Positions 19,747 through 39,614 of a DNA stretch of 64,000 bases are shown here, piece after piece. The stretch comes from Candidatus Latescibacterota bacterium. GTDB lineage: Bacteria > Latescibacterota > UBA2968. Below the pieces are notes generated by a model. That model was not told the DNA's origin. It worked only from the letters and a program-made list of their open reading frames with translations, and made no database searches. Position 1 is the first letter of the stretch. Each line of letters starts with the position of its first letter. The DNA is taken from assembly GCA_965204375.1 (NCBI GenBank), contig OZ241986.1, positions 928,001 to 992,000 on the forward strand, given 5' to 3'. The translations under genes were made by a program, and so were the position numbers.

Positions 19747-19795
19747 TGCCTTCTCCTTTGCAGATTTAGTGTGTCTCGCACGTTGGCACTGCGGG

Positions 19796-21418: not shown

Positions 21419-21448
21419 TCAACAATTTTTGAAATCTATACTTCGCGT

Positions 21449-22798: not shown

Positions 22799-22866
22799 AA
22801 AAAACTCCTCAGATTACTTCACGCTAATAAACGAATCACAGAAATATCAAAAAGATTTGATTCCTT

Positions 22867-23721
22867 CTAAACAACCGGTCTGATCTCTGGGGCACCGTTC
22901 TCTTCGCACCACGGCGTAAGTGGGCTATCTCCACCACCAGCTTTGTACCCCTCTATCTTTGGATATCTTTCACCTACCAAATACCGACCCAATTCATCCA
23001 GTTTATCCATAAAGGCAGGCTCCTGGCTTCGATAGTCCAGCGGCATAACCCAACGATAGCCATAACCAATCATGATCGCCTTTCGGATGTTACCCGATGT
23101 GTTTATCCCCGCCGCATGACCGGTTCGATTTTCAAAGAATAGGCAATCACCCGCCTTTAAAGAAGCTTCAACATAACCTTTTGGTCCAAGCTCTCCTTCA
23201 GGGACTTCAATGGGGTTGCTGTGGCGATTGGAGCCAGGCGCAATGAGTGTCATTCCCGAGTTTGGTTCGGTCAGATCATTGAGATAAAACGCGCACTTTA
23301 ACAAAACACGGGGCACATGATTTCCCAATACTTTTGTCGCTGCACCATAATCGCGATGCCATCCGACCCGCCGAATTTTCTTCGAGAGATCAGAAGAGTT
23401 TCTGTAAGCAAGTTGTGAGACCATCAGTTGGATGTGTGCACCCAAAAGCTGTACTGCAACCGACAGCGATTTGGCGTGGGTTAGCAGTGGAATAAAAGCA
23501 TCATCTTTCACAATACAATTCTTAAAGCCCAGTCGTCCCGTGCGCATGTGTTGGTCGTCACTCGCAATCAACCGATCAGCAGCCTCAACGACCCGGTCAA
23601 TCATGTCCTGATCGAGCACGTCGCGCACGATGAGATAGCCTTGCTCATCAAACTGCCTGATTTCTTGTTCTGAAAGCGCATGCCAGTCCAGATCAATCGA
23701 CGATTCTGTCATCTGAGCCAT
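22867..23721 (-). CDS. PhyH-family Fe/2OG dioxygenase
   Basis: FDEQGYLIVRDVL, WHRD, GDCLFFENRTGHA. AAGGAG RBS before ATG 23721. Confidence 0.92.
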   Translation of the reverse strand: MAQMTESSIDLDWHALSEQEIRQFDEQGYLIVRDVLDQDMIDRVVEAADRLIASDDQHMRTGRLGFKNCIVKDDAFIPLLTHAKSLSVAVQLLGAHIQLMVSQLAYRNSSDLSKKIRRVGWHRDYGAATKVLGNHVPRVLLKCAFYLNDLTEPNSGMTLIAPGSNRHSNPIEVPEGELGPKGYVEASLKAGDCLFFENRTGHAAGINTSGNIRKAIMIGYGYRWVMPLDYRSQEPAFMDKLDELGRYLVGERYPKIEGYKAGGGDSPLTPWCEENGAPEIRPVV

Positions 23722-23757
23722 TGTTTGCTCTCCTTTCGTTTGAGCCATCGGGGGATT

Positions 23758-25185
23758 CTAAACACTCGGCAAAGGCACAGTATCTCCTGTTTCATGTTGC
23801 CACAATCGAATCTTCGCCGCCATATCGCGAATGCGATCGCGATGTTCAGGAACATCAAACAGATTGTTTTCTTCATAAGGATCTGTATTAAGGTCGAACA
23901 ACTCACACTGATCACCTGCACACAAATTCAACTTCCAGAGATCACCCGTCACCACAGACCGCCAGGGCAATGTCGCCATCAAGTTAATGCTTGGATTCCC
24001 TAAATTGCGATCGCCAATCCCATTCCACTCCATAAATGCAACGTGATCCTTCAAATCGCGCTCACCGGTGAGTGCACCAGCCAAACTTTCCCCTTCACAC
24101 TGATCTGAAACTTCAACGCCCGCCAGATCCAAAAGTGTCGGCACCAAATCCGCATGCCCAAACACACCATCGATTCGTTTCTGTTCCTCATTCAACCACG
24201 GCACACTGAGCAAAAACGGCACTCGCGCAGACTCTTCGTAAAACGTCCGTTTTTCCAGCATCGCATGATCGCCCACCATTTCCCCATGATCACTCGTGTA
24301 AGCAATAATCGTATTCTCCAGTTGCCTTGTATCTTCCAATGCCTGAATGATCCGCCCCACAGCATCATCCACAATCTTCATATTTCCGAAGTATTGCGAT
24401 CTCACTTTCCGCCATCCCAATTCCGTACTTAAATCTTCACCTGCCTCTATCTTTGTTGCATAATGCTCTGCTCGCACCCGATTAAATCGCGAATGCCCTT
24501 CAGGCTGTTTCAAAAACGTCGGGCCAACTGGCAATTCCTCAGGATCATACAATCCGTCATACGGCCCTGTATATGGAGGGTGCGGTTCAAACGTACTGCA
24601 CACCAGCAACCAGGGCTGATCGACATTTTCTCGAATAAACCGATCCGCTTCCTGCGCGACAAACGCCCCGACCTGTTGTTCCGCTGGCAAACGTGCGCGA
24701 TCTCCTGCAGAAAATTGTTTCAAGTCCGGTGCCAAATGCGAGGGTGGTTCAACGCCCTGTGCCACCAACCACTCATAGTGGGAACTCATCGGCGCATCTT
24801 GAATCGTATTCAAATGCCGCAAATTATCCTGAATACTGATCCACTCATCAAACCCATGTTGGCGAACGGTATCGTTGCCCAAATGCCATTTGCCCATATA
24901 TGCTTTGCGATATGTATCTGGCATCATTTCCGCAATCGACTTTGTATCTTCCCGTAGATGAATCCCATTCACCACACATCCGTGCGAATGAGGGTACAGT
25001 CCAGACATCAACGTACCCCGCGACGGCGTACACACAGCCTGACCAACATACGTATTCTCAAAAACAAAAGACCGCTCCGAAAGCGCATTCAAATGCGGCG
25101 ATTGAATCCAATCATTGCCGTAACACGACATGGTATCTGTGCGTTGCTGATCTGTGAACACAAAAAGGATATTCGGTTGATTCAT
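23758..25185 (-). CDS. Sulfatase
   Basis: PNILFVFTDQQR, CTPSRG, GKWHLG, EPHPPY, TSDHGE. Confidence 0.95.
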   Translation of the reverse strand: MNQPNILFVFTDQQRTDTMSCYGNDWIQSPHLNALSERSFVFENTYVGQAVCTPSRGTLMSGLYPHSHGCVVNGIHLREDTKSIAEMMPDTYRKAYMGKWHLGNDTVRQHGFDEWISIQDNLRHLNTIQDAPMSSHYEWLVAQGVEPPSHLAPDLKQFSAGDRARLPAEQQVGAFVAQEADRFIRENVDQPWLLVCSTFEPHPPYTGPYDGLYDPEELPVGPTFLKQPEGHSRFNRVRAEHYATKIEAGEDLSTELGWRKVRSQYFGNMKIVDDAVGRIIQALEDTRQLENTIIAYTSDHGEMVGDHAMLEKRTFYEESARVPFLLSVPWLNEEQKRIDGVFGHADLVPTLLDLAGVEVSDQCEGESLAGALTGERDLKDHVAFMEWNGIGDRNLGNPSINLMATLPWRSVVTGDLWKLNLCAGDQCELFDLNTDPYEENNLFDVPEHRDRIRDMAAKIRLWQHETGDTVPLPSV

Positions 25186-25187
25186 AT

Positions 25188-27185
25188 CTATTCCTCAAAC
25201 CCAGAGGACAGTTCAATTCTCTTCATCACCCGCTCCAATACCCACACCCTGACGATGCCATCTCGCTGCCCACCAAGCCCGCTTGTGTAATTGTTCTTTT
25301 TGAGCTGCGTATTGTGTTCTGGCCCGCACATCTCCTGTTTGTTTATGGCCTGCTCCAGGGCGGAAATAAGCGATGCCATAGGCTGCAATTCTTCGCGGCT
25401 ACGGTATGACAGATAAGCGCCGGCCCGTAGCCGCGCCCAGAGGATATCGCTCGCCAGCGCCCGTTCAAAAGCAGGCAGAGCCAGGGCGCCTTCGCCTGCC
25501 CGCACCAGATAGTCTCCGGCGGCCAGGCTGACGCTGATTGAGGGATCGTCAAGGAGGGGGGAGAGCCGCTCGGTCATCGCGCGTTCCACACCAAGCGAGC
25601 AAAGGCCGGTAACAGCCCAGAAACGCACGGCGCTGTCGGGATCACCAAGTCGTTTTACGAGTTCTTCCTTTGCTTCTTCGCCCATGCGCGCCAGGTCCGC
25701 TGTTTCCAGGATCCGCTCATAATTATCACAGTGAGTACCGACTGCGTGGCTGATGCCGTTGTACTGCTCGGCTCGCGCGGCAATCTCCGGTTCATCGATC
25801 AGCCCCAGATCGCGGGTCTCGATCATCCAGCCAAACAGCTTCTGTCGCAGTTCCTTTTTGACGTCGCTGAAAGCGGGATCTTCTGCCAGGTTATGCACCT
25901 GTTCAGGATCCTTTTCGATGTCGTATAACTCTTCGGCCGGTTTGTGATCCTGCCAGATATGAAACTGCTGGTAATGCTCAGGTAGCCCGTCCTGTTTGAT
26001 CATGACCGGTGGACCGAGCATCAGAAACACGCCGTCGGGGTCGTGGACCTTCTGTTTGCCCGGCAGGCAAGAGGTCTCCCAGAAGGCTCGCTCCGGCGTT
26101 CCCTCTTCTGGGACGGGCGCGAAGAACCCGCCGTCTGGATAGAACGAAGCATAAGGCTGGTGGGGGAGGAAGTTACGCATGTAACGGTATTTTTTGGTGC
26201 GGATCGTGCGGATCACCTCCGGGTTGTTGTCCAGCCGATCTCTGGCACTGCAGACGAACTCTCTCGGTTCATCTCTGTTGGGACCGCACAGGTTTCGACT
26301 CTGTATATGATCGGCGAGCGGAATGCCTGCCAGCTGCAGGGTCGTCGCACACAGGTCCATGTGCAAGACGGGTTCATCAATCGCGGTGCCGGGGTCTGCC
26401 GGGGATAGGTGCCGGTACTTCTCCGGGAATCGCATAATCAGCGGAATACTCAATCCGTCGTCGTATGCATGGATCTTGCCCCGGGGATAACCCGTGCCGT
26501 GGTCTCCCCAATAGACCACAATAGTGTCTTCACTGTGCCCCTGCTCTTCAAGCTGGTTCAGGATCTCCCCGACCTGCTTATCGACATTTGTAAGGGCATC
26601 GTAGAAAAGTGCCATCCGTTCCCTGAACAGGGGCGTGTCGGGAACAAAGCTCGGAACCGGCACATCATTCGGATCGTGCAACTCGTCGTCGCTCAAGAGC
26701 GCGGAACGCGCTTTCCGTGCATCCTCGGGCGTCAGTTTGAATACGCTGGCGTGGGAACTGCCCAGTCTGTAATACATGAAAAACGGCTTGTCTTCAGGGC
26801 GATTCTCCCAAAAATCTTCAGAATTGTAATACTGTTCACGCTCATCTTTGGAGACGTATAGATTGATGTCATTGTCCGGCTGCGTGCAGGCATAACCGGC
26901 GTTTGTCAGCATTGTGTTTAACAGTTCAACCCCTGCGGGGCGGATGACCGCGCTACGGTGATGATGCGTGCCCAGCGTGGTCGGATGCATGCCGGTATAG
27001 ATGCCCGTGCGCGATGGTGAGCAGATTGGGCCAGCGGTGAACGCGTTGGTGTAGCGCACACCTTCTGCCGATAGGCGGTCAATATTCGGGGTATGCGCGT
27101 ATTGATCGCCGTAGCAGCCGTAGTTCCAGGCGCTGGAGTCGTGGTTGCTGATCCAGAGGAAATTGGGTCTGTCTTGTTTTTCCAT
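25188..27185 (-). CDS. Sulfatase with C-terminal HEAT-repeat domain
   Basis: CSPSRTG, WGDHG. C-terminal LGDPDSAVRFWAV and LLDDPSISVSLAA repeats. Confidence 0.9.
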   Translation of the reverse strand: MEKQDRPNFLWISNHDSSAWNYGCYGDQYAHTPNIDRLSAEGVRYTNAFTAGPICSPSRTGIYTGMHPTTLGTHHHRSAVIRPAGVELLNTMLTNAGYACTQPDNDINLYVSKDEREQYYNSEDFWENRPEDKPFFMYYRLGSSHASVFKLTPEDARKARSALLSDDELHDPNDVPVPSFVPDTPLFRERMALFYDALTNVDKQVGEILNQLEEQGHSEDTIVVYWGDHGTGYPRGKIHAYDDGLSIPLIMRFPEKYRHLSPADPGTAIDEPVLHMDLCATTLQLAGIPLADHIQSRNLCGPNRDEPREFVCSARDRLDNNPEVIRTIRTKKYRYMRNFLPHQPYASFYPDGGFFAPVPEEGTPERAFWETSCLPGKQKVHDPDGVFLMLGPPVMIKQDGLPEHYQQFHIWQDHKPAEELYDIEKDPEQVHNLAEDPAFSDVKKELRQKLFGWMIETRDLGLIDEPEIAARAEQYNGISHAVGTHCDNYERILETADLARMGEEAKEELVKRLGDPDSAVRFWAVTGLCSLGVERAMTERLSPLLDDPSISVSLAAGDYLVRAGEGALALPAFERALASDILWARLRAGAYLSYRSREELQPMASLISALEQAINKQEMCGPEHNTQLKKNNYTSGLGGQRDGIVRVWVLERVMKRIELSSGFEE

Positions 27186-27286
27186 AAGTGGCTCCTATTT
27201 TTGATTCCCGGCGCGGCCTGGATTAGTCAATTTCTAAAAAATAATAATATGTACGAAATCTTCAGTCAAGAAAGTAACAGCACGTC

Positions 27287-27318
27287 CTCCATCTTACGAA
27301 GAAGTTGGAGGATGAGAT
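27287..27318. terminator. Hairpin downstream of the ABC/GdmH operon
   Basis: CGTCCTCCATCTT...AAGTTGGAGGATG imperfect inverted repeat just after the ATPase stop codon. Confidence 0.5.
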
Positions 27319-27330
27319 ATATTTCAATGC

Positions 27331-28227
27331 TCAGATGACTTCGTCGCCTGCCTGAGTAAGCCGGATCATGGGAAGGTCTTCATGGCGGTTTTTTTCTGGC
27401 GGATGGATGAGTTCTTCGAGGCGTTTTTTGGTGGCCAGAAATTGGGGTGTGAGGAATTGGTCTGGATTGCGGGGGCGGGGCACGGAAACTTCGATAATTT
27501 CCTGGATGTGACCGGGGTGGGTACCTAAAACTACGATGCGGTCAGCCAGATAGACGGCTTCATCCAGGTCGTGGGTGATAAAGAGGATGGTGATATCTAC
27601 GTTGCGCCAGATTTGGAGCAAGTAGGTCTGCATCTGGCTTCTGGTTTGGGCATCAAGGGCACCAAAGGGTTCGTCCATGAGCAGGATACGGGGGCGGTTG
27701 GCCAGGGCGCGTGCGATGGCCACGCGTTGTTTCATGCCACCTGAAAGTTCGTGTGGATAAGCGTTGGCAAAATTGCTCAGGCCCACAAGGTCGATCCACT
27801 GGAGTGCCTGTTCTTCGGCATAATTGTTGCCGTGGTTAGTCATTTTGAGGCCGAACATGATATTCTTTTTTATGGTCAGCCAGGGAAAGAGCGTGTAACC
27901 TTGAAAGACCATGCCGCGATCAGGGGACGGACCTTTCACTTCTTGATTGTCCAAGAGGACCTGGCCGGAGGTGGGATAGTCCAGGCCAGCCAGGATGCGG
28001 ATGAGGGTGGATTTACCACAGCCGGAGGCGCCGATGACACAGATAAATTCACGCCGGTGTATGTTGAACAGGATGTCGTGGAGGGCGACGATGTCGCCGT
28101 CGGCCCCCGGAAAGATTTTGCCGAGGTGCTGGACTTTCAGGACAACGGGGCGCTGGCGAATTTTTTCAAATCGGGCTTTAACGTCCGGTTCCTGTTCCAG
28201 GTAGCTCGGTAAATTCAGGTTGTTCAT
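27331..28227 (-). CDS. ABC transporter ATP-binding protein (TauB/SsuB/NrtD type)
   Basis: Walker [29 protein letters not shown]. Confidence 0.97.
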
Positions 28228-28297
28228 GGTTGGGTTTTTCTGTCTGAGAGGTTGATTTTTTGAAGACTTTGAAAGTTCGGTTCAGCCGCAGGCGTCC

Positions 28298-29257
28298 TCA
28301 GTTGCGGCGTTCCCAGGGGAAGAGGTAGTGACCGATGAAGCGCAGGATCTGATCGGTGGTAAGGCCGATAATGCCGATCATGACAATGGCCGCAAAGACG
28401 TTATCGTAATTGCGGTATTTGGCCTGCTGATTGATAAACCACGAAATGCCCGAAGACGCGCCGATGAGTTCGGCAACAATGAGGTAGGTCCAGGCCCAGC
28501 CCAGGAGAATGCGCATGTCGCGGTAGAGGTTGGGCAAGATGCCGGGTACAATGACGTGGAAGATCAGTTTTTTTGAGGTCGCGCCCAGAGTCTGGGCGGC
28601 TTCAAGTAGGGATTTGTCCAGCAACCGCGTGGTGTTGCCGACCACGAGCACCATCTGAAAGAAGGTGCCGATAAAGATAATGGCCACTTTGGGCGCATCG
28701 GCGATGCCTAAAAAGGCGACCATGAGGGCACCAAAAGCCGGGGCGGGCATGTAGCGGATGAAGTCGATAAAGGGCTCGATAATGCGTGTGAAAAAGGCAA
28801 AGGTGCCACATAGAATACCGAGGGGCACGCCGAGGATGGCGGACAGGGTGAATCCGTAGAAGATGACGGTGATGCTGTGCAGAATGCTTTGGTGTAGCCA
28901 GGGATCATTGCGCCGGATGGGGGCGGTTTGAAAGGCTGTGATAAAAGCCTGGACGACCTGATGCGGGGCTGGCAAGTAAATGGGGTTAGCCAGCTCGCCC
29001 CGCGCTTCTGATTCGCCTTCTTCGCGCATGAACGCATTTTCTTTGTTGAATATCTCCCGGTCAACCAGCATGTCTTTTTGAAAGTAGGCCACCCCTCCCG
29101 GATCGCTGATGAGCACCATCGGATGCCAGATCCAGGGCGTGTAACTCACCAGGCTCCAGATACCTAGCGGCAACAAAAAGGAGCACAGACCCAAAAGCCA
29201 ACTCCTCTGACCAGACAGATCTTTGCGAATCGCAAACCAGTGTTTTCTCACATTCAT
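28298..29257 (-). CDS. ABC transporter permease (TauC/SsuC type)
   Basis: Hydrophobic; FIRYMPAPAF, EAAQTLGA loop, WAWTYLIVAEL. Confidence 0.95.
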   Translation of the reverse strand: MNVRKHWFAIRKDLSGQRSWLLGLCSFLLPLGIWSLVSYTPWIWHPMVLISDPGGVAYFQKDMLVDREIFNKENAFMREEGESEARGELANPIYLPAPHQVVQAFITAFQTAPIRRNDPWLHQSILHSITVIFYGFTLSAILGVPLGILCGTFAFFTRIIEPFIDFIRYMPAPAFGALMVAFLGIADAPKVAIIFIGTFFQMVLVVGNTTRLLDKSLLEAAQTLGATSKKLIFHVIVPGILPNLYRDMRILLGWAWTYLIVAELIGASSGISWFINQQAKYRNYDNVFAAIVMIGIIGLTTDQILRFIGHYLFPWERRN

Positions 29258-29333
29258 AAAAAGCTCTGATTAAATAAACGACAACGGAGACAAATATTTC
29301 TCTCGTCATGGGAGAAGGGTGTTTAAGGGCCTC

Positions 29334-31190
29334 CTAAGCAAATTTCATTTTTAAAGCGTCGTCGATCTCGTTTTCACAAGCCATGGCCGGAAGCCCCAGT
29401 TCGCGTTCGACCACATCAAAGAAGGCACTTTTTCGAACATTCTGACCCTGAAGGCGGCTGGCCAGTACATCGGCCCCGGGCAGGCCGTGGCTGAGGGTGA
29501 TCAGGCCGGGATTGGGGATCAGGTCATAGTGCCCCCAGCGGCTTCGGTAAAGGCCCTGACGGTTCCAGCGGATGGCTACGTTAAGGGCTTCAACCAGGCC
29601 GAAGGGATTGAAGAGGGTGCTGTAAATTTTGGCCATTTCACAACACACACGGGCAAAATAGGTGATATTAGGACCGTGCCAGGCTGCTCTTAAAGGGGCG
29701 GGTATGAGGCCGAAGCAATTGGAGATGGACAGGCGTGTGTGACCTTTGAACCGGGCGAAGGAGATGAAATCATTACTGGCGTAGTCGAGTAAGAGTTTTG
29801 GTATAAATCGGCAGAGTTCGGGGTGATAGGATTTGTGTCCGGCCTCTTCGAGGTGCCCAGCTATGTCGGAGGGATTGGCACATTGGCCGTCCCAATAGGC
29901 CTCGGTGACGTTGAGATAGTGGGCATTGTGGTGGTCAATAACGTCCTGGAGGCCAGTGCGTTTGAGGTATTCTTGATCTTGATCGCGAATCCAGGTGCGA
30001 TGGGCTTTGCTTTCCGTTTTCCAGTCCCAGGAGGTTCCGCCCAGATTTCGTCCTACAGTATGGCCTTCTAAGATTACGGCCCGACCGGGCAGAGCCGACA
30101 GAAGTTTGTCGAGGGCAATGGGGTCGGTGTAGGTACCGGTGGCATATCCATGCCAGGTGACTTTGACGAAGGCGGGGTCTGAGGTGATGCCAAAACTTTG
30201 AAAGAGGCGGGATAAAGCGTCAGTGTCGTGGATTTCGGCGATGGTGGCACCCTGATAGGTGTGCGTGTGGGGCACGGGGCCTTCGATATCTCGGATTGGC
30301 AAAGTGCCGTCGGGACCGTGGATACAACTTACAGGTTGGGCGTTTTTGTTGTGCTTGGGCGAAGGGGTGCGTTTTGCAGTTTTTTCGCGGTGGGCGTTCC
30401 ATAGAGCGGACAAACGCTGTTGCATCCATGCTGAGAGGTGTGCTGTGAGGCCCAGTGAATTGCAGAGAATCCAGGTGTCGGCGAGGGGATGCTTTTTGCA
30501 GAAATCTTTGTAGATAATCCGGGTATATTCTGCATGGTCGTCTTCAAATAGGAGATAGGGGGCCAGGATCCAGCGATACGGTGTTTGCGCCGCACAGGCA
30601 AGTTGCTCGGGCAGGGGTGTTTTTTCGTGGCGTAAGAATGCCACGTCCGCTTGTGCCAGACTCAAGTGTTCCCAGAGCAAGCGCATCAATTGATAGGATT
30701 TTGCACGGCCTACCGGATCGCCGTGTCCACTGGCGACGAGCATCAGGGCGGTGTTTTGAGGCAATGTGTTGGTGTGGTGCAGGCGGGTGCAGATGTGATC
30801 GACAAAGGCCTGGATCAACAAGGGATGGCAGGGGTCTGGATCGTCGTAGAAGATATTCATATCCGGATGGTCCCTGCGGGTCTGATTGATGGTTTCTATA
30901 AAGATGGTTTTCTGATCGATGCTGAAGTCCAGCAAGAGGGGCAGTATAAAGACAGCACTGGCACCGTCTTGATGGCAGGCCTGGAGATGTTCGGGCAGAT
31001 CGCCTCCGGTCCATTGCCCGGCGGGAGGTAGAGACGCACAGGTAATAGAAGGGGTAAATCCCAGGATTGGAGCGCATGTTTCGCTCAGAGCCTGGCAGAG
31101 GGCTTGGGGCTCGTTCAGACGGTTCGAGCAGGTGTCGGTCAGGAGGACAAACACAGGAGGCCCCCTATGTGTGTGGTTACTGGATGCCAC
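29334..31190 (-). CDS. Fusion of a CbiX/SirB-like chelatase domain pair and a DUF362-like domain
   Basis: N-half: LPLLL, RRDHPD...HPLL, TALMLVASGHGDP, RLLWE, VAFL, PYLLF (CbiX-L pattern). C-half: FVKVTW, TYTDP, ILEG, RFKGH..LSISNCFGLIP...WHG (DUF362 pattern). Confidence 0.7.
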   Translation of the reverse strand: MASSNHTHRGPPVFVLLTDTCSNRLNEPQALCQALSETCAPILGFTPSITCASLPPAGQWTGGDLPEHLQACHQDGASAVFILPLLLDFSIDQKTIFIETINQTRRDHPDMNIFYDDPDPCHPLLIQAFVDHICTRLHHTNTLPQNTALMLVASGHGDPVGRAKSYQLMRLLWEHLSLAQADVAFLRHEKTPLPEQLACAAQTPYRWILAPYLLFEDDHAEYTRIIYKDFCKKHPLADTWILCNSLGLTAHLSAWMQQRLSALWNAHREKTAKRTPSPKHNKNAQPVSCIHGPDGTLPIRDIEGPVPHTHTYQGATIAEIHDTDALSRLFQSFGITSDPAFVKVTWHGYATGTYTDPIALDKLLSALPGRAVILEGHTVGRNLGGTSWDWKTESKAHRTWIRDQDQEYLKRTGLQDVIDHHNAHYLNVTEAYWDGQCANPSDIAGHLEEAGHKSYHPELCRFIPKLLLDYASNDFISFARFKGHTRLSISNCFGLIPAPLRAAWHGPNITYFARVCCEMAKIYSTLFNPFGLVEALNVAIRWNRQGLYRSRWGHYDLIPNPGLITLSHGLPGADVLASRLQGQNVRKSAFFDVVERELGLPAMACENEIDDALKMKFA

Positions 31191-31196
31191 GGGGCT

Positions 31197-32354
31197 TTAT
31201 TCCGATTCGAGTTTGCCGCCAATCCGGTCGTATTTTACCAGGGTGGCCAGGGTGTCCATCATGGCGCGAACGCCCAACAGGGCCGTAATGTCGGAGATGT
31301 CGTAGGGCGGAGCGACTTCGACAACTTCCATGGCGGCGATGCCTTCTTTGGCAATACCACGGAGCAGGGATAGGGCTTCTCTGGGTAGATATCCGCCGGG
31401 CTCTGGCCAGCCTGTGCCGGGTACAAAACCGGCATCTACGGAGTCGATGTCGAAGGAGAGATATACAGCACTGGCACCTTTCCAGGCCACTTCGAGGGCG
31501 ATTTCGAGGGTTTTGTCAATACCGAGGGTTTCGACATCGTCGATGGTGAGCACGGTTGAGCGCATGGTGCGGCCGTGGCGCACCCCCGTTCTGGGTACCT
31601 GCCAGCCACCAATGCCCAATTGGACCAGATTGGTGGGGGGGCAGTTGGGGATATTGGTGGCATGGAACCAGGGACAGGTGTGCATGATTTCGTCCATGTC
31701 TTTTTCCTGGGTGTCCACATGGCGGTCCAGATGGATGATGCCGACTTTGCCTTCGACGCATTCGGCCACGCCGCGCACACAGGGATAACCGATGGAGTGG
31801 TCGCCCCCCATGATCATGGGCAAAGCCCCGCTGGAAAGGATATGGGCAACGCCTTTGGTAATTTGGTCGTGCCCTTTGGTGATATTGGCGGGACAGAAAA
31901 TATCTCCGATGTCACACATTTTGAGAGATTCGCGCAGGTCAATGCCGAGTTCAAAATTATAGGGGGTGTACAGGGAAGATATCCGGCGCATGCCCTGTGG
32001 CCCAAAGCGGGTGCCGGATCGGTAGGTGGTGCCGATATCGAAAGGCGCGCCGACGAAGGCCACGTCATAATCGCCGACCTGACGCACATCTTCGAGGTAG
32101 GGGAGTTTTAAAAAGGTGTTGATGCCCGACCAGTGGGGGAGCTCGCCCCGTTGAAAGCAGGAAATGTCGGGGTCAGCGATGGAATCTGATCCGGACAGGC
32201 CAAATTCCAGACTGCGGGCAATTTCGTTGCGATATTGTGTGTCCGGAAGTTCGGATTCGGCATCCTGTGCAAGCCAGCCGTTGAGGTGGGAGATGTCGGG
32301 GAGGTCGCGTTGATGCTCGCGGTAATTGGGGGCATGCGTGTCGTAAAATGGCAT
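31197..32354 (-). CDS. gdmH: Ureohydrolase, guanidine hydrolase (GdmH)-like
   Basis: Binuclear-metal motifs GGDHS, DRHVD, SFDID. Segments I recall from Synechocystis Sll1077/GdmH: RGELPH, YTPYNFE, MHTCPWFHATN, QLGIGGWQVPR, PGTGWPEPGG. Confidence 0.85.
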   Translation of the reverse strand: MPFYDTHAPNYREHQRDLPDISHLNGWLAQDAESELPDTQYRNEIARSLEFGLSGSDSIADPDISCFQRGELPHWSGINTFLKLPYLEDVRQVGDYDVAFVGAPFDIGTTYRSGTRFGPQGMRRISSLYTPYNFELGIDLRESLKMCDIGDIFCPANITKGHDQITKGVAHILSSGALPMIMGGDHSIGYPCVRGVAECVEGKVGIIHLDRHVDTQEKDMDEIMHTCPWFHATNIPNCPPTNLVQLGIGGWQVPRTGVRHGRTMRSTVLTIDDVETLGIDKTLEIALEVAWKGASAVYLSFDIDSVDAGFVPGTGWPEPGGYLPREALSLLRGIAKEGIAAMEVVEVAPPYDISDITALLGVRAMMDTLATLVKYDRIGGKLESE

Positions 32355-32424
32355 GAAGATTCTCGTGTGGCGTTTAGAGATCGGTCGGTGCCGAATTTTT
32401 AAGATATCCGGCACCGACGATGTG

Positions 32425-33405
32425 TTATTTCAGTTCCATAATCAAGCTGGGATCGAAGTAGGTATCAATGTCCTGCGATTTTTCATAGACCTTGTTATCC
32501 ACGTTGAATGTGTTGACCACTTCGCTGGATCCATAAACCGAATCTAACCCCTCGGCTTTGGCAAAGCGTTTTTTGGCCTGCTCTGCGGTGAGCAAGTAGG
32601 TGCCTTCCAGGAGTGGGGCATAGTCTTCGGGGGTGAGGCCCACGCGGGCACTGAGGATTTTGAGGACTTCCTCGCGGTTGCTGTCGTCTTTGATGTAATC
32701 TACAATGTCATACCAAATTTTGACGACTTTCTGCCAGTCTTCCCTGTTGGCCGCTAGGCTTTCGTTGCTTACGTAAAGCAGGTCATAAATGATGCCGGGC
32801 GCATTGGCACTGGTGAAAATGGGCCGGGAGCCGGGCACGGTTTTGAGAGCCTGTCCGGAGTTGGGTTGCCAGGCCACGATGGCGTCGACCTGTTTGGAGG
32901 CCAGACCCTGAGGGGTTTCGTGAGTGGGCATGTTGATCAGGGTGACGTCGCTTTCTTTCATGCCATTGGCTTCAAGGCCTTTGAGCAGCAAGAGGTGGCT
33001 GACAAAACCCAGTTCGACACCCACTTTCTTGCCTTTGAGTTGGGTGATTTTGCGAATGCCTGGTCTGCCAACGACCATGTCGTTGCCGTTGGAATAGTCG
33101 TTGATCAAGATGCCTTTGCAGGCTTTGCCTGTGGCACCTGTGACCAGGGCGTCTCCGTTGGTCATGCACACGGCATCTACTTTGCTGGCGGCAAAGGCGT
33201 CCATGGACGGCACATATTCAAACCAGATAAATTCCACATCGATACCGGCTTTTTTGAACCAACCCTTCTGGATGCCAACTTCCCAAGCGACCCAACCCGG
33301 CCAGTCGCTGTAGCCAATTTTGAGTTTGGCGGCCAACGAGGGAGAGGCAAAAAGCAGGGAGAACGCGCACCCGACAATGAGAAATAGGCGTGTGCCTTTT
33401 TTCAT
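32425..33405 (-). CDS. ABC transporter substrate-binding protein (guanidine/urea-carboxylase-associated type)
   Basis: Signal peptide; [37 protein letters not shown]. Confidence 0.9.
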
Positions 33406-33777
33406 GGTAATCTCCTTATAGTTGTACAGCTCATAGCGTATATGACGAACAGATTTAAGTATAAAGCGAATATGTTTCTTGTAGATTTACTCGATGTGAA
33501 CGAAGGATTAAATTTGCTTCATATCTGCGGTCCAGGGGGTTGTGCCCAGTACACATGAGCATGACCTGGTCAATGGCGTTCCAGAGTGTATTGAGATTGG
33601 AGGTTTGGATACAAGGGCGCGTATTACAAAGAGGTGGGATTTGGTTGGGATAGAGAAAAGAAAAGAGGGGATCGGTACGTGTTTTAATCGGTCTGAAGCA
33701 GCCCGGCACAGCCGGTGGCAGGCTGGTAGGATGGGAGCGATAGGGGAGGGAATGGAGATGTGTGATGTGTATTCGGT

Positions 33778-35205
33778 TCACCAGTTCTGATCTATAATCA
33801 GAAATCCTTTTGCTTTACACAGTTCACTGTCTTTCCACCCGTAAAAGAGGAGCATGCCATCTCTTACATTTCCTTTTGGATCTTTAATCGGTTGGATATT
33901 GTTAAATTTCCAACCGGCATACTCCGGGGCATGTGGCGTCAAATCTCTCACCCTTTTCCAGGTAAATCCGCTATCGGTGGAGATCCACTCTTCAATATCT
34001 CCTCCACCTCTGGAGTCCATGTTGCCACGCGTTTCTTTTACAAATTTGTGATCACCTACTATCAGATAAGCATGTAGCGTGCCACTTTCATCCAGCCTGA
34101 GATAGCAACTGTTCCAATCATCAGTGGCAGGGGTGATAACCGTCTGTATCCATTCGTGATTGATATACCTCACATAATAGTAATTGCATCTGTCGGGCAC
34201 ATCTTCCGATAGCACATGCAAAAAGGCCGGATTATCATTTTCATCTATGACAATATCAGGTGGAACGCCTGCGCCTCTCCAATCGGTATCCCAGATTTTG
34301 CATTTGTCATTTGCAGTGCCAATATCAATGGGCGTTCTGACTGTCTCGCCATCAAAATTCGCGACCTCATGCGTTTGAAGGTTGATTTTTACATAATAGA
34401 GGTTGTATTTGAGGCCGAGATTCTTTTTGGTTCCATAACGAGGATTGTAAAACTTTTCTGGGATATCCTTTTTGTTGTCATCATAAGAACAAAATACGGC
34501 GTGCAAAAACTTTCCATCTTTACTCGGAAAGCAAGTGTGATAAGAAGACCACTCATTCAAGTCCATCGGATCATCTACTGTTGCCGTTTCTTCTCCCATG
34601 TTTAAATCTGTGACATCATTTTCAGGCCCCGACCAGGTCTTACCTTCATCGTCTGAAATTAAATATGACCACGAACTTCTGTGCTCTCCTGTTCGGAAAT
34701 AAACCACTTGCCTATTATTGTCTATGTGATAAACCGTAGGGTAAGAAAGCGAGTTTCTTATTTCAGGGGCTGGAGACCAGTCTTCTACACTGTTTCCAAT
34801 ATCCGCTACCTTTTTGGATATTAAATGTGTTCCTGGCGTTTTGTGACAACCCGACAAAATATGTAAAAAGTCATCATTGTCAGCCCAGATTACGGGGCAA
34901 TAATGCTGGTCGTTTGAGCCTTTGGTTCCCAACTGTAGGGGAGACGAAAAGGACTTTGTCTCGGGGTTAAAAGAGATAACAAAAGGATATGTCTTTTCCC
35001 TGGTCTCAGCATCCATTGGTGCCCCGCCATTATAAACGATATATACTCGATTGTTGATAAAGATGGCTTGAGGGCGCTGCCTTCTGTCATAGATCATTTT
35101 TAATTGTCCCCCACTTCCAAAGGGAACAACAGAAAAATCCGTTTGTTTCTCAGTATCCACAGCCTGACCTCCAAATGCAATCGGTGAAATAAGAAGGACT
35201 CTCAA
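33778..35205 (-). CDS. BNR-4 beta-propeller, ulvan lyase PL25-like
   Basis: DQHYCP...SGCH (two His 20 apart) and SYP...YFR (Tyr and Arg 16 apart), matching the PL25 active-site spacing as I recall it. TTG start uncertain. Confidence 0.7.
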   Translation of the reverse strand: MRVLLISPIAFGGQAVDTEKQTDFSVVPFGSGGQLKMIYDRRQRPQAIFINNRVYIVYNGGAPMDAETREKTYPFVISFNPETKSFSSPLQLGTKGSNDQHYCPVIWADNDDFLHILSGCHKTPGTHLISKKVADIGNSVEDWSPAPEIRNSLSYPTVYHIDNNRQVVYFRTGEHRSSWSYLISDDEGKTWSGPENDVTDLNMGEETATVDDPMDLNEWSSYHTCFPSKDGKFLHAVFCSYDDNKKDIPEKFYNPRYGTKKNLGLKYNLYYVKINLQTHEVANFDGETVRTPIDIGTANDKCKIWDTDWRGAGVPPDIVIDENDNPAFLHVLSEDVPDRCNYYYVRYINHEWIQTVITPATDDWNSCYLRLDESGTLHAYLIVGDHKFVKETRGNMDSRGGGDIEEWISTDSGFTWKRVRDLTPHAPEYAGWKFNNIQPIKDPKGNVRDGMLLFYGWKDSELCKAKGFLIIDQNW

Positions 35206-35228
35206 TTTCCAGAAGTGCTACCATCTCA

Positions 35229-37151
35229 CTATTCTGCCTGTTTTGTAAAATCCAGGACCTTCTTGCGCGTTCCCTTGCTAATGGTGACGACCCCGCTATT
35301 CCACTCCGCATTGAGAAAGGGGCTTTCAAAGACTTTCTTTGGAGCGTAGTCAACAGGCTTGCCATTGATTGAGGGTACCGATTTGGTGCTGGTATCAAAG
35401 GTCAACTGATCGCCATAGATGGTTTTGTAGCGCAGCACCGTCCCATCCAGATGAACTTCACAGGCTTTCACCTTTTTTTTGAAGGCGTCGAAACTCGTGA
35501 CATCGCCCTTGGCCATGACTTCAATGATCACCGGTGCGTATTCATCATTGGGGATCATGGTCGCGTTTTCGGGAACAAAGCGATCCGTTTCAAACTCGCC
35601 ATCCATCCACTTGAAACCGCCTGTGGCCACGCGGATCGCCGCATAAGCGCCTTTGGCTTCCACATAGACCACGCCATCCTCTTCCACTGGCGCGCTCAAC
35701 CCGCTCTTCGACATCCAGATGATCATCTCGGCACCGTCCTTATGGTGCTTGAGCTTCTGGGTAATCAAGCTGCCTTTGCTCTGCACAGACCACTGTGCGT
35801 TCATGGCCACCCGGTTGTCTTTGGGGCGAACGATGGGAACAATACGCGCATCGTGTTCGCCGGCAAAGATCACGCCTTGCCAGCGGTTTTGCGCACTGAT
35901 CGCAGCCCAATCCTCTATGGGCCTCGCTTCCGTCATCGGCGTTCCCATGATGAAGGCGGGATCGCAGTAGCTGTAGCGCAGAATACCACCCCCATCGGTT
36001 CGCATCCTGGTCGGCATTTGCGTATCAGCAGTCTTCAAAGGCCGACCCGTTTTTCCCAGCCCCTGGGGGCGCTGCCGCACCTCGTAGCGTCCTCGTCCCG
36101 CCACGTCGATTGCGATATCGGCCACTACGGCTGGTGGTCGGTAGTCGCTGAGAGCCGCGTTCATGTCATGACCATAAACAGCAGGCTGCTTGCCGATGCC
36201 AAAATAGAACCAGGCCAGCGGCGCATTGCCATGCTCCCGGTTTTGCTTAAGCCCTTTCCAGAAATAGATGCGCGACCGTCCACCACCTTGAACGCCGTCA
36301 ATCTGTTCCTGCGCCCAATAGGCAAAATAAAGATCGAGCAACATCCCGGCCGACCGTCTCACTTGCGGGTCACCAAAGTCGTAGAAATTGTAGAATCCCT
36401 TGATCAGTGTGCTATTATAGCCGTCACTCATCATCTCGATGCACAGGCTTTTGCGCGCACGTTCACGGCAGTAAACCACAAAATACGCATTCCAGGCCCG
36501 ATAATGTTCCGCCGCTGTAGCGCCGTCATCATACTTGAGGTCCTTGTATTCGGGCCGATCTTTCGCGATCCTGGCAAACTGCCAGCAGACCGTAAAACTC
36601 ATGGCATGATGATTCTCTGACAGGTAGATGTGCCAGGTCTTAGATTTCTCGTATTCCGCCTTATCAAGCCGGGAAACCTTCCTGACGTACTCCCAGATCG
36701 GCTTGAGAGCGAGGGCTTCGGTCTTTTTGGTGATGCGATTACTACCGTTGGTGCCGTACATCTCAATCAGCCGCATGACGATCTCCGCATGCCAGTGAAA
36801 ACTGTCACGGTCATTGATGTCCAGGGGGTTGTCGAGATAGTGCTGGGCATTTTCGGCAAGTGCGGCATTGGCTTCTTCCAGCATCTCGTTCAGGTAGAGG
36901 CAACGTGCGGCAAACCCCACCATGGAATAGGAATAGGCCCGCACATAATTTCCCCGCCCGGGATCGAGTGGCTTCCGTTTCTTTGCCCGCACCAACGGCT
37001 TGCCGGATTCAGCGCAAAACATCGCATCCACTCGTTGTTCAAAGCCAGCTACGACCGCTTCGGGAGTTAAATTTTTCTCCACTGATTCAGCTCCTTGTGT
37101 CTGCCCAGTTATAAGTATAACGATCAGCATTATGCGGTTGATGATTCGCAT
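35229..37151 (-). CDS. Secreted hypothetical protein (probable helical toroid plus beta-sandwich, lyase-like)
   Basis: Signal peptide from MRIINRIML; SENHH, LLDLYFAYWAQEQIDGVQGGGRSR, RWQG, KVFESPFL. Paralogous to 37514..39613. Confidence 0.7.
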   Translation of the reverse strand: MRIINRIMLIVILITGQTQGAESVEKNLTPEAVVAGFEQRVDAMFCAESGKPLVRAKKRKPLDPGRGNYVRAYSYSMVGFAARCLYLNEMLEEANAALAENAQHYLDNPLDINDRDSFHWHAEIVMRLIEMYGTNGSNRITKKTEALALKPIWEYVRKVSRLDKAEYEKSKTWHIYLSENHHAMSFTVCWQFARIAKDRPEYKDLKYDDGATAAEHYRAWNAYFVVYCRERARKSLCIEMMSDGYNSTLIKGFYNFYDFGDPQVRRSAGMLLDLYFAYWAQEQIDGVQGGGRSRIYFWKGLKQNREHGNAPLAWFYFGIGKQPAVYGHDMNAALSDYRPPAVVADIAIDVAGRGRYEVRQRPQGLGKTGRPLKTADTQMPTRMRTDGGGILRYSYCDPAFIMGTPMTEARPIEDWAAISAQNRWQGVIFAGEHDARIVPIVRPKDNRVAMNAQWSVQSKGSLITQKLKHHKDGAEMIIWMSKSGLSAPVEEDGVVYVEAKGAYAAIRVATGGFKWMDGEFETDRFVPENATMIPNDEYAPVIIEVMAKGDVTSFDAFKKKVKACEVHLDGTVLRYKTIYGDQLTFDTSTKSVPSINGKPVDYAPKKVFESPFLNAEWNSGVVTISKGTRKKVLDFTKQAE

Positions 37152-37164
37152 TATAAACACTCTG

Positions 37165-37479
37165 CTAATCCTGGTGAAAAACTTCCTGCAGCGGTATGCA
37201 GACCGGCGAGTTGTCGGGGTTGGTATCCATGATATCGGCCATGTAGGCCCACCACTTCTTGACGATTGCGGTCTCCGACAACTCATCTGCAGTATTGTCG
37301 TCGGCCAGCTTCTGTACGGCAAAGAGTGTCAGCGTCTCCTCATCGAGAAAAATTGAATAGTCCGAGACGCCAGCTTTGCCCAATTCTTCAGCCAGTTCCG
37401 GCCAAATTTCGTCGTGGCGCTTTTTGTACTCGGCTTTGTAACCGGGCTTCAGTTGCATCTTGAAAGCATTGCGTTGCAT
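37165..37479 (-). CDS. rhaM: L-rhamnose mutarotase
   Basis: 104 aa; AFKMQLKPG..EYKKRHDEIWPEL, DYSIFLD, KWWAYMADIM, LQEVFH. Confidence 0.95.
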   Translation of the reverse strand: MQRNAFKMQLKPGYKAEYKKRHDEIWPELAEELGKAGVSDYSIFLDEETLTLFAVQKLADDNTADELSETAIVKKWWAYMADIMDTNPDNSPVCIPLQEVFHQD

Positions 37480-37513
37480 GATATTTTGCTCCTGACTTCG
37501 AGGATGAAGGGTT

Positions 37514-39613
37514 TTAGCATTCGTCCCTGGAATTGTTGTTAAAGTCGAGGTTGAGTTTGTAATCATCTTTGAAAATTTCAATCTGGCCGCTATCATACTT
37601 GGATTGGATATAAGGGCTGTCGAAAACTTTTGGGTGCTCATAATCGACATATTCGCCACCAATTGTAGGCACATCGCTTGTATTGGCCGCATTAAATACC
37701 ATTTCTTCCATGTCCGGTGCCGCACTCTTGTAAACCGCAACAATGCCTGTTTCTCTTGTGACGACGGTCCTGTGGAGTGTGAGATCGCCCTGAAAAATCA
37801 TACGCTTATAACTTTCCAACGTTGGGTGGTCTGCCTTGCGACCGGCTTCTATCAGAATGGGACTGTATCTGTTGGTCAGTTGCAAAATCGTCCGGTCGTT
37901 ATTGAATCTATAACTGTCTTTTCTAAGAACCACTTTGCCCCGGTAGCTGTCGGTCCCTTTTGCCCAGGCTTTAGCGTCGGCCTCTGCTTCCAAAAGAATA
38001 ACCCGTATTGCCACATAAACATTTTCCTTCTCTGCAAATATCCATCCATCTGTTTCATCAATACGATCCCATCCGTTGCCCAGGAATAACCCGAATTCCC
38101 GATCATACCGATTGTCATTGGCTGGATACCAGTCTGGATTGGATTGTGCCCAACGTCTTCTTTGTTGGGTGATCAGCACTTGCTTGTGCTGGACGCTGTG
38201 ATACACCAATTCCATGTCGTAGGCATTGTTACCATCGCTTTCTGCTTCGGGTGTATCCAGTGCAATGGTTGCCAGACGGGTGTTGGGATCTTTGGTCACC
38301 AGGCCTTGCCAGCGTCCGGCGGTTGATAGGTGGTTGTAAAGCGCATAAGGGTGATCCATCTGAGTACCCAGTATATAATCTGGCGTTACCCAGGTGTATT
38401 TGACAAACCGCGATGGTGTATCTCCCATCACGGAGCGCTCCGTGCCCAATGGACGAGGGCTGGTAGGCTCTTCTTCTCCAATGCCCCGAGAGAGATATGC
38501 AAATGACCCGAGCCGTTTTCGATCCAGAGCCAATTCCCATACGATTCTTGGCCAGGCGTAGTCGCTTAAGAGTTGCTGCGGATAGTTGAACGAGGTTTTG
38601 CCCTCACCACCCAGATAGAAAACGGCGAGGTCTGACATAGAATCGTACCCACCAGCAGTCTTGTGGTGGCGCGTTTTGGGACCACCTCGTAAACCTGCAA
38701 TTTGTAGCTGTGCCCAATCGGCCCACATCAGATCTAAAAACATGCCAATTTTCTTTTTTAGCCTCTTATCACCACAGAAATTGTAGAGCATAAGAATATA
38801 ACTGATGGTGTACTTCATATAGGTCGGCGAACCATTTTCAAGAAAGAATCCCCGCTTTGCACGCTCGGTGAAATAGTCATTGAGATAGGGCAACCAGGCA
38901 CCGTAATGATCGGCTGCGTTGTAAGATTTTCCATCCGCCCAATTTGCGCGCCCACCACCGTGTCGATCACTGTTGCCCTGCCCACAATAGCCCGACTCGC
39001 CGTATCCGATGCCATCTCCATAACCGAGGTCGGGATAAATGCGGTCAACATACTCGGGTTCATTGGCAAAAATACGCGCACTTAAAAGATTACAGGCTTT
39101 TGTATTCAGATCGTGATTTTCACTACCCGCGATCCACCAGGTGCTCTTTTTTGCGACGGAAATATCATTTTTGTACCTGGTTCGCGCCCATAATAAAGCC
39201 AGCAAAGTTTGCTCTGTTTCAGGCGTGAGTCGATTTGGCATCTGTGTACTTTTAGACCCAAACCAATTGTAGAATGTAATCAGCCTTGGATTGCGCCACA
39301 GGCTGTAGAGACTCTGCACGGGTTGTATGCCTTTCGCCTCACATTCTGCGAGATTTGCCAGTTCGGTTTGAAAATCTATCGTCAATTCTCTGTTGACTTC
39401 GTTTAGATTTTGGTTGAGCCACATCTGATCAAATAGCTGGCGGTCTTTGCCTGAAAAATCTGTTTTTGCACCTGCTTCAAAGGCTTGTTGAATGCGTTGT
39501 GGGCGCGTTTCCAATTCTTCTGCCATTAATTCGGTGATACGCTTTTCGACGGGTGAATCACCAAATTCCAGAAGGGATCGAAACCAACTGTTTTTAGCAT
39601 CTGCTTCGGGCAT
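37514..39613 (-). CDS. Hypothetical protein, paralog of 35229..37151
   Basis: GSENHD, FLDLMWADWAQLQIAGLRGGPKTR, RWQG, KVFDSPYI. Confidence 0.7.
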   Translation of the reverse strand: MPEADAKNSWFRSLLEFGDSPVEKRITELMAEELETRPQRIQQAFEAGAKTDFSGKDRQLFDQMWLNQNLNEVNRELTIDFQTELANLAECEAKGIQPVQSLYSLWRNPRLITFYNWFGSKSTQMPNRLTPETEQTLLALLWARTRYKNDISVAKKSTWWIAGSENHDLNTKACNLLSARIFANEPEYVDRIYPDLGYGDGIGYGESGYCGQGNSDRHGGGRANWADGKSYNAADHYGAWLPYLNDYFTERAKRGFFLENGSPTYMKYTISYILMLYNFCGDKRLKKKIGMFLDLMWADWAQLQIAGLRGGPKTRHHKTAGGYDSMSDLAVFYLGGEGKTSFNYPQQLLSDYAWPRIVWELALDRKRLGSFAYLSRGIGEEEPTSPRPLGTERSVMGDTPSRFVKYTWVTPDYILGTQMDHPYALYNHLSTAGRWQGLVTKDPNTRLATIALDTPEAESDGNNAYDMELVYHSVQHKQVLITQQRRRWAQSNPDWYPANDNRYDREFGLFLGNGWDRIDETDGWIFAEKENVYVAIRVILLEAEADAKAWAKGTDSYRGKVVLRKDSYRFNNDRTILQLTNRYSPILIEAGRKADHPTLESYKRMIFQGDLTLHRTVVTRETGIVAVYKSAAPDMEEMVFNAANTSDVPTIGGEYVDYEHPKVFDSPYIQSKYDSGQIEIFKDDYKLNLDFNNNSRDEC

Positions 39614-39614
39614 A

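Follow-up and report, generated by a model that had tools for sequence, protein, structure and literature searches.

In a 64,000-nucleotide stretch of the Candidatus Latescibacterota genome GCA_965204375.1 (hereafter the window; positions 928001-992000 of contig OZ241986.1, the assembly being one contig of 6.34 Mb), the gene for a guanidine hydrolase of the GdmH type is followed directly by a gene for a 618-amino acid (aa) protein that joins a chelatase fold to a divergent DUF362 domain. The same pair recurs, on one strand, in 76 of the 80 genome loci in which we found this two-domain protein (hereafter the fusion), and the carriers span about eight phyla. Judged by close similarity to characterized enzymes, the five genes that include the pair are an operon for guanidine uptake and guanidine hydrolysis. 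The nickel genes that follow gdmH in other clades, taken with the invariant His and Cys residues that the fusion has gained, lead us to favor a role for the fusion as a dedicated nickel-loading or activating factor of GdmH, an assignment that we hold to be about evenly balanced between right and wrong. In the proposed scheme, an ATP-binding cassette (ABC) importer would bring guanidine into the cell, the hydrolase would split it into urea and ammonium, and the fusion would deliver or insert the nickel that GdmH needs, or activate the enzyme in some other manner, in the role that the HypA/HypB-like proteins GhaA and GhaB take in cyanobacteria. The working part would likely be the C-terminal, LarA-like DUF362 domain with its invariant H347, H377, C437, C516, and C517, and the chelatase-fold half would contribute either a further metal site or a docking module. 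Such a helper is predicted to bind metal, to transfer it to GdmH, and to do so independently of a nucleotide.

The discovery of guanidine hydrolase, a nickel enzyme through which cyanobacteria and complete nitrifiers can use guanidine, is recent. How GdmH outside the cyanobacteria is supplied with nickel is acknowledged as an open point in passages of the comammox paper (PMC11410670), where the nickel route to the guanidinase is called unclear for organisms in which chaperones were not found; a conserved partner makes this point directly testable. GdmH travels through about eight phyla with one uncharacterized protein, built from two folds that both have known nickel-handling relatives, and this gives a branch of DUF362 its first functional context. 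For work on engineered guanidine or ethylene pathways and on guanidine as a nitrogen source, full activity of a transplanted hydrolase may depend on the choice of helper.

The linkage was surveyed in one genome per species (185,579 species), which yielded 126 stretches encoding a relative of the fusion, 80 of which were kept as loci. One genome among them, G018 (locus L029), is unpublished; it supplies one row in the genome counts and trees, and no claim is made on it alone. The carriers belong to Latescibacterota, Poribacteria, Myxococcota (Polyangiaceae, Kofleriaceae, and Haliangium), Tectimicrobiota/Entotheonella, Acidobacteriota (Bryobacterales and Terriglobia), Verrucomicrobiae, Planctomycetota, and Binatia, and a cultured carrier, nonpathogenic and thus open to direct testing, is Singulisphaera acidiphila DSM 18658 (Planctomycetota, L049). 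By tblastn, GdmH lies directly upstream in 76 of the 78 loci where upstream DNA exists; in L025 and L044 the contig begins within the fusion or shortly ahead of it. The two true exceptions are L054 (genome G033), where no GdmH adjoins the fusion and a GdmH of 74% identity is encoded on another contig (L191), and L010, from Poribacteria, where LarE precedes the fusion in the place expected for GdmH. The initial annotation of this DNA had proposed a gene-neighborhood survey as a check on the association, and the fusion indeed proved to be linked to GdmH, in these 76 of the 80 genome loci as well as in 44 of the 46 metagenome loci that are informative. The gap from GdmH to the fusion has a median of 3 nucleotides (nt) and is 20 nt or shorter in 96 of 106 cases, as counted from the candidate start nearest to the GdmH stop, a choice that biases the gaps toward small values.

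The genes around the pair vary. Of the 80 genome loci, about 47 have ABC importer genes (the binding protein in 47), 14 encode a large outer-membrane barrel, and 13 encode a metallo-beta-lactamase-fold protein. In about 19-22 loci, chiefly from Bryobacterales (for example, L030:4629-8819 (+)), the pair adjoins a complete urease operon with ureD, ureF, ureG, and the genes for the gamma, beta, and alpha subunits. This arrangement fits the conversion of guanidine to urea and ammonium followed by further splitting of the urea; in such loci guanidine could be taken fully to ammonium from one locus. The neighbor clusters present in at least 5 of the 80 loci are GdmH, the ABC importer, the urease genes, the metallo-beta-lactamase-fold protein, the outer-membrane barrel, and a glutathione peroxidase, and none of these provides a context of sirohaem, cobalamin, or F430 synthesis. 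This bears on the simplest alternative, namely, that the adjacency is meaningless and an unrelated tetrapyrrole chelatase gene happens to lie beside the hydrolase gene. The source names of some relatives ("sirohydrochlorin ferrochelatase" or "CbiX") would suit such a chelatase, but the pair is kept while the surrounding genes change, the catalytic His residues of chelatases are not conserved (see below), no tetrapyrrole genes recur among the clusters just listed, and the operon in the window is flanked by sulfatases and polysaccharide-degrading genes. We give this alternative next to no credence and regard it as effectively refuted by the linkage survey.

A reverse survey scanned metagenomes with a GdmH alignment and took the best 80 of more than 596 stretches, a choice that favors relatives of the query. 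In 54 loci, GdmH shows 70% identity or more to that of the window. The fusion is directly downstream in 44 of them; eight of the other ten have less than 320 nt of downstream DNA, and two (L133 and L135) are truly without the fusion. When only loci of this clade with at least 400 nt downstream are counted, the fusion follows GdmH in 44 of 46. L133 and L135, together with L054 and its separate GdmH (L191), place the coming apart of the pair in a Verrucomicrobia-related sub-branch. In L133 (1356-2726) and L135 (1054-3535), GdmH is followed by an Fe-ADH_2-like gene, and an open reading frame (ORF) of 188 aa that belongs to no family lies upstream.

The remaining 26 metagenome loci encode a GdmH that is 59-68% identical to that of the window, and the fusion is found in none of them. 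The position directly after GdmH is taken in 15 of the 26 (GdmH 59-64% identical) by a protein of 125-187 aa with a long His-rich tail (Table 1). The tail is N-terminal in most members and C-terminal in L166, the protein has a conserved C-terminal domain, and it matches no Pfam or NCBIfam family. Like the fusion, this protein sits directly after GdmH and is undescribed; unlike the fusion, it is small and has an overt nickel-binding tail, and the two are unrelated in sequence (best BLAST E 0.36). It is probably a separate nickel helper. At L144:10168-12765 (+), the genes after GdmH encode CbiM, a PDGLE protein, and a CbiQ-ABC ATPase fusion, which together make up an energy-coupling factor (ECF)-type nickel/cobalt importer; ureD lies downstream of GdmH in L160, and a HypA-like gene that starts at the contig end lies downstream of it in L149.

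The type of accessory gene follows the GdmH phylogeny. In a FastTree tree of 154 GdmH sequences, midpoint rooted and so read for grouping and not for the order of events, four label changes over the 141 labeled rows suffice. Of the 122 rows in one clade (support 100), 112 are fusion-linked and eight have short flanks; the other two are L133 and L135. Six more fusion-linked rows (Entotheonella/Tectimicrobiota, L048, and L029) form a group whose sister is the clade with all 15 His-rich cases, and in the fusion tree these six fall together on one side of a branch that has 99% support.

This agreement of the two trees, at the one deep split tested, is also what would be expected if the fusion were a noncatalytic subunit or regulator of GdmH, a pseudo-enzyme with a part in hexamer stability, in gating of the active site, or in the sensing of nitrogen or nickel status. 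The tight same-strand adjacency and close spacing would suit equal dosage of the two proteins, and the degenerate chelatase catalytic positions resemble those of pseudo-enzymes. Metformin hydrolase offers a loose parallel, being a heteromeric ureohydrolase in which one subunit is inactive. Heteromeric ureohydrolases are on record (PMC11271267, PMC11399263). However, the solved GdmH and guanidinase entries each name a single molecule, which we read as homo-oligomers without a partner, and a protein that served only as a scaffold would hardly need the invariant His/Cys set of the C-terminal domain. No fused form of GdmH and its partner occurs among the longer proteins (1083-3090 aa), although this is weak evidence. 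A prediction of the complex between GdmH residues 45-405 and the full 618-aa protein scored 0.00, which speaks neither for nor against binding. We consider a purely structural or regulatory role quite improbable.

By sequence similarity, the hydrolase of the window is a GdmH orthologue, for which guanidine hydrolysis and Ni2+ dependence are predicted. Its best matches among solved structures are 9fek (E 2.8e-147) and the Synechocystis Sll1077 entries 7esr and 7oi1 (E 1.8e-146), and matches outside the guanidine hydrolases are much weaker, with guanidinobutyrase next (9e-51) and agmatinase at 6e-37. Residues D205, H206, H228, D230, H232, D234, D322, and D324, which lie in the GGDHS, DxHxD, and DxD motifs and which we take, by analogy with arginases, to be the ligands of the binuclear metal center, are invariant in 29 of 29 aligned GdmH sequences. 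The consensus of the relatives, with its M-x-F-Y start, begins only at residue 21 of the 405-aa frame (here MPFYDTHAP), and the first 20 codons of the frame (GTG start, 32354-32414) are unmatched by them, so the true start is probably near 32354 and the protein about 385 aa long.

The fusion has at least 644 full-length homologues of about 580-670 aa, which carry the source names "hypothetical", "CbiX", or "sirohydrochlorin ferrochelatase"; the closest, at 92-97% identity, are from Candidatus Latescibacterota genomes. An NCBIfam scan assigns the 618-aa protein to no family. An AlphaFold model computed with 33 sequences has a mean predicted local distance difference test score (pLDDT) of 86.8. 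The label "CbiX/DUF362 fusion" given in the initial annotation is right, in that a SirB-like chelatase fold is joined to a region of DUF362 homology, the latter being a divergent branch of its family. The suggestion that the system is undescribed also stands, since the full-text literature yielded no description of the fusion, a search whose scope was main texts and not supplements or the neighborhood analysis of Funck et al. 2022; the words "chelatase" and "CbiX" are absent from the portions consulted of a PNAS 2025 paper (PMC12704784) and of a 2025 review.

In the N-terminal half, a Foldseek search of the PDB returned the SirB entries 5zt8, 5zt9, and 5zt7 (E about 1e-9, target template modeling score 0.72-0.76), followed by ferrochelatases; SirB was solved with Ni2+ in 5zt9. 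The Pfam CbiX match (E 1e-9) covers residues 157-256, that is, the second lobe, and the sequence similarity to SirB is marginal (E 0.054). This half therefore shows the two-lobed class II chelatase fold of SirB, CbiX, and CfbA. Unlike these proteins, the fusion does not conserve the catalytic, metal-binding His residues, carries an additional DUF362 domain of about 330 aa, and is encoded in loci without a tetrapyrrole-pathway context. We counted residues in 78 full-length members, namely, the window and 77 genome loci. At position 156, His is found in 34 of 78, and the substitutes are Gln (21), Asp (6), Glu (4), and others (A, N, R, K, and T); at position 219, His is found in 45 of 78, and L, I, and others replace it. 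The two positions presumably correspond to the catalytic His residues of SirB, an equivalence drawn from motifs (GHGS and LLxxGxH) and not from structural superposition. CfbA, also a class II chelatase, is a nickel chelatase, and the initial annotation had pointed to it as a precedent. That analogy turns out to be weak, with the chelatase His residues so poorly kept and with the DUF362 half as the strongly conserved part of the protein.

The C-terminal half, modeled alone, reaches a pLDDT of 91.2 and a predicted template modeling score (pTM) of 0.91. On the 618-aa protein, Pfam DUF362 (PF04015) scores 16.9 bits (E 0.0069), below its cutoff of 24, but a profile of the C-terminal domain run against 1.84 billion proteins retrieved 234 representatives, many of them stand-alone proteins of about 300 aa (E 1e-59 to 1e-26), and 40 of the 41 stand-alone relatives that were scanned carry PF04015. 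Alignment of the domain with the stand-alone DUF362 set by hhalign gives a probability of 100% (E 5.7e-87, 304 columns), and the matches listed in the ESM Atlas are all DUF362 clusters (score 0.91). The clusters of the stand-alone relatives are named only "DUF362" or "hypothetical", and we know of no DUF362 protein of known function.

Foldseek found nothing in the PDB at E 0.001 or better for this domain. With VIA-align 2, run against 48,161 chains, the top five entries are all of the LarA family (5huq, Z 11.3; 7s91, 11.0; 4nar, 10.6; 9eia, 10.6; and 9q3j, 9.6), and the next entry has Z 5.5. The alignment to 5huq has a root-mean-square deviation of 3.9 over 202 residues. All of these matches are to the LarA N-domain only (at most LarA residues 4 to 286, approximately, and 36-270 in 5huq); the LarA C-terminal domain is absent from the 618-aa protein, the remainder of which is the chelatase fold. 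LarA carries the nickel-pincer cofactor (5huq). Pfam places DUF362 and the LarA N-domain in a single clan, CL0471, according to a published account (PMC11770544). At the level of sequence, a profile search of PDB sequences with the C-terminal domain gave no meaningful match, hhalign against 13 LarA homologues gave a probability of 0.1% for the domain and likewise for DUF362, and Pfam Lar_N does not match the 618-aa protein. The domain thus resembles the LarA/DUF362 clan in its LarA N-domain-like fold and in its full-length homology to stand-alone DUF362; it differs from LarA in lacking the LarA C-terminal domain and detectable sequence similarity and from typical DUF362 in falling below the Pfam cutoff and in having its own invariant His/Cys set.

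That set stands out against a strongly conserved background. Among the 78 members, K343, W346, H347, E375, N427, E430, D434, K482, R486, N491, H505, C516, R549, D556, and D574 are kept in all, and C517 (77/78), H377 (75/78), and C437 (72/78) are nearly invariant. K343, E375, E430, K482, H505, and D518 are common to the stand-alone consensus and form a family-wide core, whereas H347, H377, C437, and the C516-C517 pair set the GdmH-linked branch apart. An added His/Cys cluster of this kind is what a metal site would be expected to show, if the residues are close in space. In the other direction, stand-alone DUF362 proteins have, immediately ahead of the NxFGLIP motif, a Lys that hardly varies, and the fusion has Ser, Ala, or Thr in its place; we can only guess that this Lys corresponds to the cofactor-tethering Lys of LarA.

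These features also suit a second alternative, in which the fusion is an enzyme that works with GdmH on a guanidine-related substrate, product, or cofactor. Such an enzyme might depend on the nickel-pincer nucleotide (LarB/C/E) or on some similar organometallic group, with the chelatase half binding the metal or the cofactor. The family-wide core is what would be expected of an active or ligand site common to all DUF362 proteins, and the only clearly similar solved folds are those of LarA-family enzymes, from the same clan. Yet no similarity to LarA was found at the sequence level, the LarA C-terminal domain is missing, the Lys before NxFGLIP is replaced, and characterized guanidine hydrolysis needs no second enzyme; the recurring downstream enzyme is urease.

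Because the C-terminal domain has a LarA-like fold, the co-occurrence of lar genes was also examined. LarC (PF01969) is encoded in the source genome and in 44 of 45 other carrier genomes, which at first sight supports an enzyme with a nickel-pincer cofactor. A control removed this support: among 151 sampled genomes from the order of the Bryobacteraceae carrier G012, LarC is present in 148 and the fusion in 9, and co-occurrence with so widespread a gene is uninformative. Two loci place a lar gene beside the fusion. In L010:416-1303 (+), LarE (TIGR00268, E 2e-98) is directly upstream, and in L056:12728-13453 (+), LarC1 (TIGR00299, E 3.3e-62) is two ORFs downstream on the same strand and is a second, partial LarC copy in its genome. 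The other 78 genome loci and all 80 metagenome loci are without a Lar gene. By a rough estimate, chance would give far fewer than one Lar neighbor this close, but the test was made after the fact, and we treat the two neighbors as a lead for an enzyme or cofactor role and not as support. Lar_N matches occur in 42 of 46 carriers, and the other 4 of 46 have LarC without a Lar_N match, a combination that can be counted on the side of another user of the cofactor. An enzymatic role for the fusion is the main alternative to a nickel-loading one, and on balance we consider it unlikely.

Two further observations concern the wider clan. In G004, G023, G027, and G030, a strong LarC match goes with no Lar_N match or only a marginal one, and in such bacteria proteins other than LarA may use the nickel-pincer cofactor. 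A search of carrier genomes for close stand-alone DUF362 relatives found only distant paralogues (E 1e-9 to 1e-14), and in three genomes some of these lie about 2-3 kb from weak Lar_N matches (G012:C59:2902-5050, G021:C2:304999-307174, and G024:C31:2077-5656), which may be a recurring pair of two clan members.

The nickel chaperones HypA, HypB, and UreG provide the point of comparison for a helper role. In cyanobacteria, the HypA/HypB-like genes ghaA and ghaB hold the position after gdmH, as set out in part of the PNAS 2025 paper (PMC12704784). The cluster of Synechocystis sp. PCC 6803, gdmH-ghaA-ghaB-gimABC (sll1077-sll1082), resembles that of the window in having a similar GdmH, a NitT/TauT-type importer, and an accessory gene directly after the hydrolase. 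In the window, unlike in Synechocystis, one 618-aa protein with a chelatase fold and a DUF362 domain takes the place of the HypA- and HypB-like genes, the hydrolase and its partner stand between transporter genes (binding protein, hydrolase, partner, permease, and ATPase), and the guanidine-I riboswitch is lacking. No hypA, hypB, or ureG gene is encoded in the 64-kb window, as had been noted from the ORFs at the outset. A whole-genome search of the source genome found no HypA; the genome has four CobW/HypB/UreG-family genes, all outside the window, one of which is beside a urease alpha gene about 4.1 Mb away.

For the other loci, a HypA profile was built from six carrier-genome sequences and run on six-frame translations of the window and of 160 loci. 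It recovered all six positive controls and, among the loci, matched only L149; no HypA-like gene was detected within 9-10 kb in any fusion-bearing locus, with a sensitivity that is limited by the six seeds. The expectation that the fusion and hypAB exclude each other accordingly holds at the level of the locus, where no HypA-like gene was detected, and fails at the level of the genome. HypA is encoded elsewhere in 22 of 45 fusion-bearing genomes, away from the pair wherever coordinates could be compared. Apparent HypA genes in loci L030 and L077 were rejected, as their coordinates lie on other contigs and the stretches concerned encode urease subunits and unrelated genes.

In favor of the fusion as a nickel-loading or activating factor, both of its folds have nickel-handling relatives (SirB with Ni2+ in 5zt9 and LarA in 5huq), and the source genome is without HypA. 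Several points weigh against it. Linkage alone would fit a subunit or a pathway enzyme equally well, and the canonical chelatase His residues are poorly kept. The 618-aa protein has neither a His-rich tail nor, by Pfam and NCBIfam, a HypA zinc ribbon, a HypB/UreG GTPase, or any other nucleotide-binding domain, unlike HypB, UreG, and UreE, and it could be only a functional analogue of HypA/HypB or of UreDEFG-type maturases. Other nickel chaperones are often on hand, given the 22 genomes with HypA and the roughly 20 of 80 loci in which ureG stands beside the pair, the latter only as part of urease operons. The guanidinase of N. inopinata and the GdmH of Synechocystis gain activity in E. coli when nickel is in the medium, as reported in passages of the comammox paper (PMC11410670), and a helper may therefore raise metal occupancy rather than be essential. 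Finally, about 90 positions of the C-terminal domain are invariant. Arg, Lys, Asn, Asp, and Glu account for many of them, several recur in stand-alone DUF362, and as a set they look more like an enzyme active site than like a simple chaperone.

A broader proposal follows the same lines. The fusion may found a new class of nickel-insertion protein, in which a chelatase scaffold and a LarA/DUF362 domain together load the binuclear nickel center of GdmH without a HypB/UreG-type GTPase, perhaps through an organonickel intermediate related to the nickel-pincer cofactor; this is a tentative idea that we regard as less likely than not. If it is true, it would provide a first function for the large DUF362 family, and GdmH would have recruited at least three unrelated types of helper, namely, HypA/HypB, the small His-rich protein, and the fusion.

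The features of the locus are collected in Table 1. The five ORFs (binding protein, hydrolase, fusion, permease, and ATPase) are all on the minus strand in the order first annotated. The hydrolase frame ends at 31197 and the GTG of the fusion frame is at 31190, which leaves 6 bases between them, the spacing originally given.

Table 1. Features of the guanidine operon in the window and of the His-rich protein loci in metagenomes
Feature	Position	Strand	Basis
Substrate-binding protein (326 aa) of a NitT/TauT-type ABC importer, NMT1/SsuA-type	32425..33405	-	Pfam NMT1_2, E 4.7e-18; NMT1, E 6.8e-17
GdmH-type guanidine hydrolase, predicted; arginase family (405-aa frame)	31197..32414	-	Pfam Arginase, E 5.4e-74
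Two-domain fusion protein (618 aa), GTG start	29334..31190	-	Pfam CbiX and divergent DUF362
Fusion, N-terminal half (residues ~10-275), two-lobed class II chelatase fold	30366..31163	-	Foldseek; Pfam CbiX
Fusion, C-terminal half (residues ~313-618), divergent DUF362 with LarA N-domain-like fold	29337..30254	-	Domain model; VIA-align; hhalign
ABC permease (319 aa)	28298..29257	-	Pfam BPD_transp_1, E 4.1e-25
ABC ATPase (298 aa)	27331..28227	-	Pfam ABC_tran, E 2.5e-33
His-rich protein after GdmH	L154:10165-10674	+
His-rich protein after GdmH, further loci	L153, L155-L159, L161-L163, L165, L166, L168-L170

The three transport proteins have only sub-cutoff matches among NCBIfam models. The binding protein is closest to TIGR03427, the urea-carboxylase-associated ABC binding protein (E 1e-49), and is a probable guanidine binder; the permease is nearest to TauC and SaoP, and the ATPase to the ntrCD subfamily (E 6.9e-76). 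No Rfam family reaches its threshold anywhere in the 64-kb window, and there is thus no recognizable guanidine riboswitch in it. A promoter and terminator scan of positions 27000-34000 gave a number of sites not above that in shuffled sequence. The flanks of the operon (18277-27185 and 33778-41579) encode four or five sulfatases, a PhyH-family dioxygenase, a BNR-repeat protein, and a rhamnogalacturonan lyase, and no nitrogen or metal genes or adjoining regulator were found in them.

Sequences from RNA libraries also cover the locus. Runs X2 to X4 contain small, less similar pieces only, and we draw nothing from them. In run X1, labeled as a coral metagenome, contigs that are 97-98% identical to the window cover positions 27300-33217, and the permease/fusion, fusion/GdmH, and GdmH/binding-protein junctions are each bridged by single contigs (records 6, 7, and 8). 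These contigs are compatible with a transcribed operon in a close relative, with the limit that contigs cannot show a single transcript and that carry-over of DNA is possible. A close relative of the source organism is present in the X1 coral sample and may express the operon.

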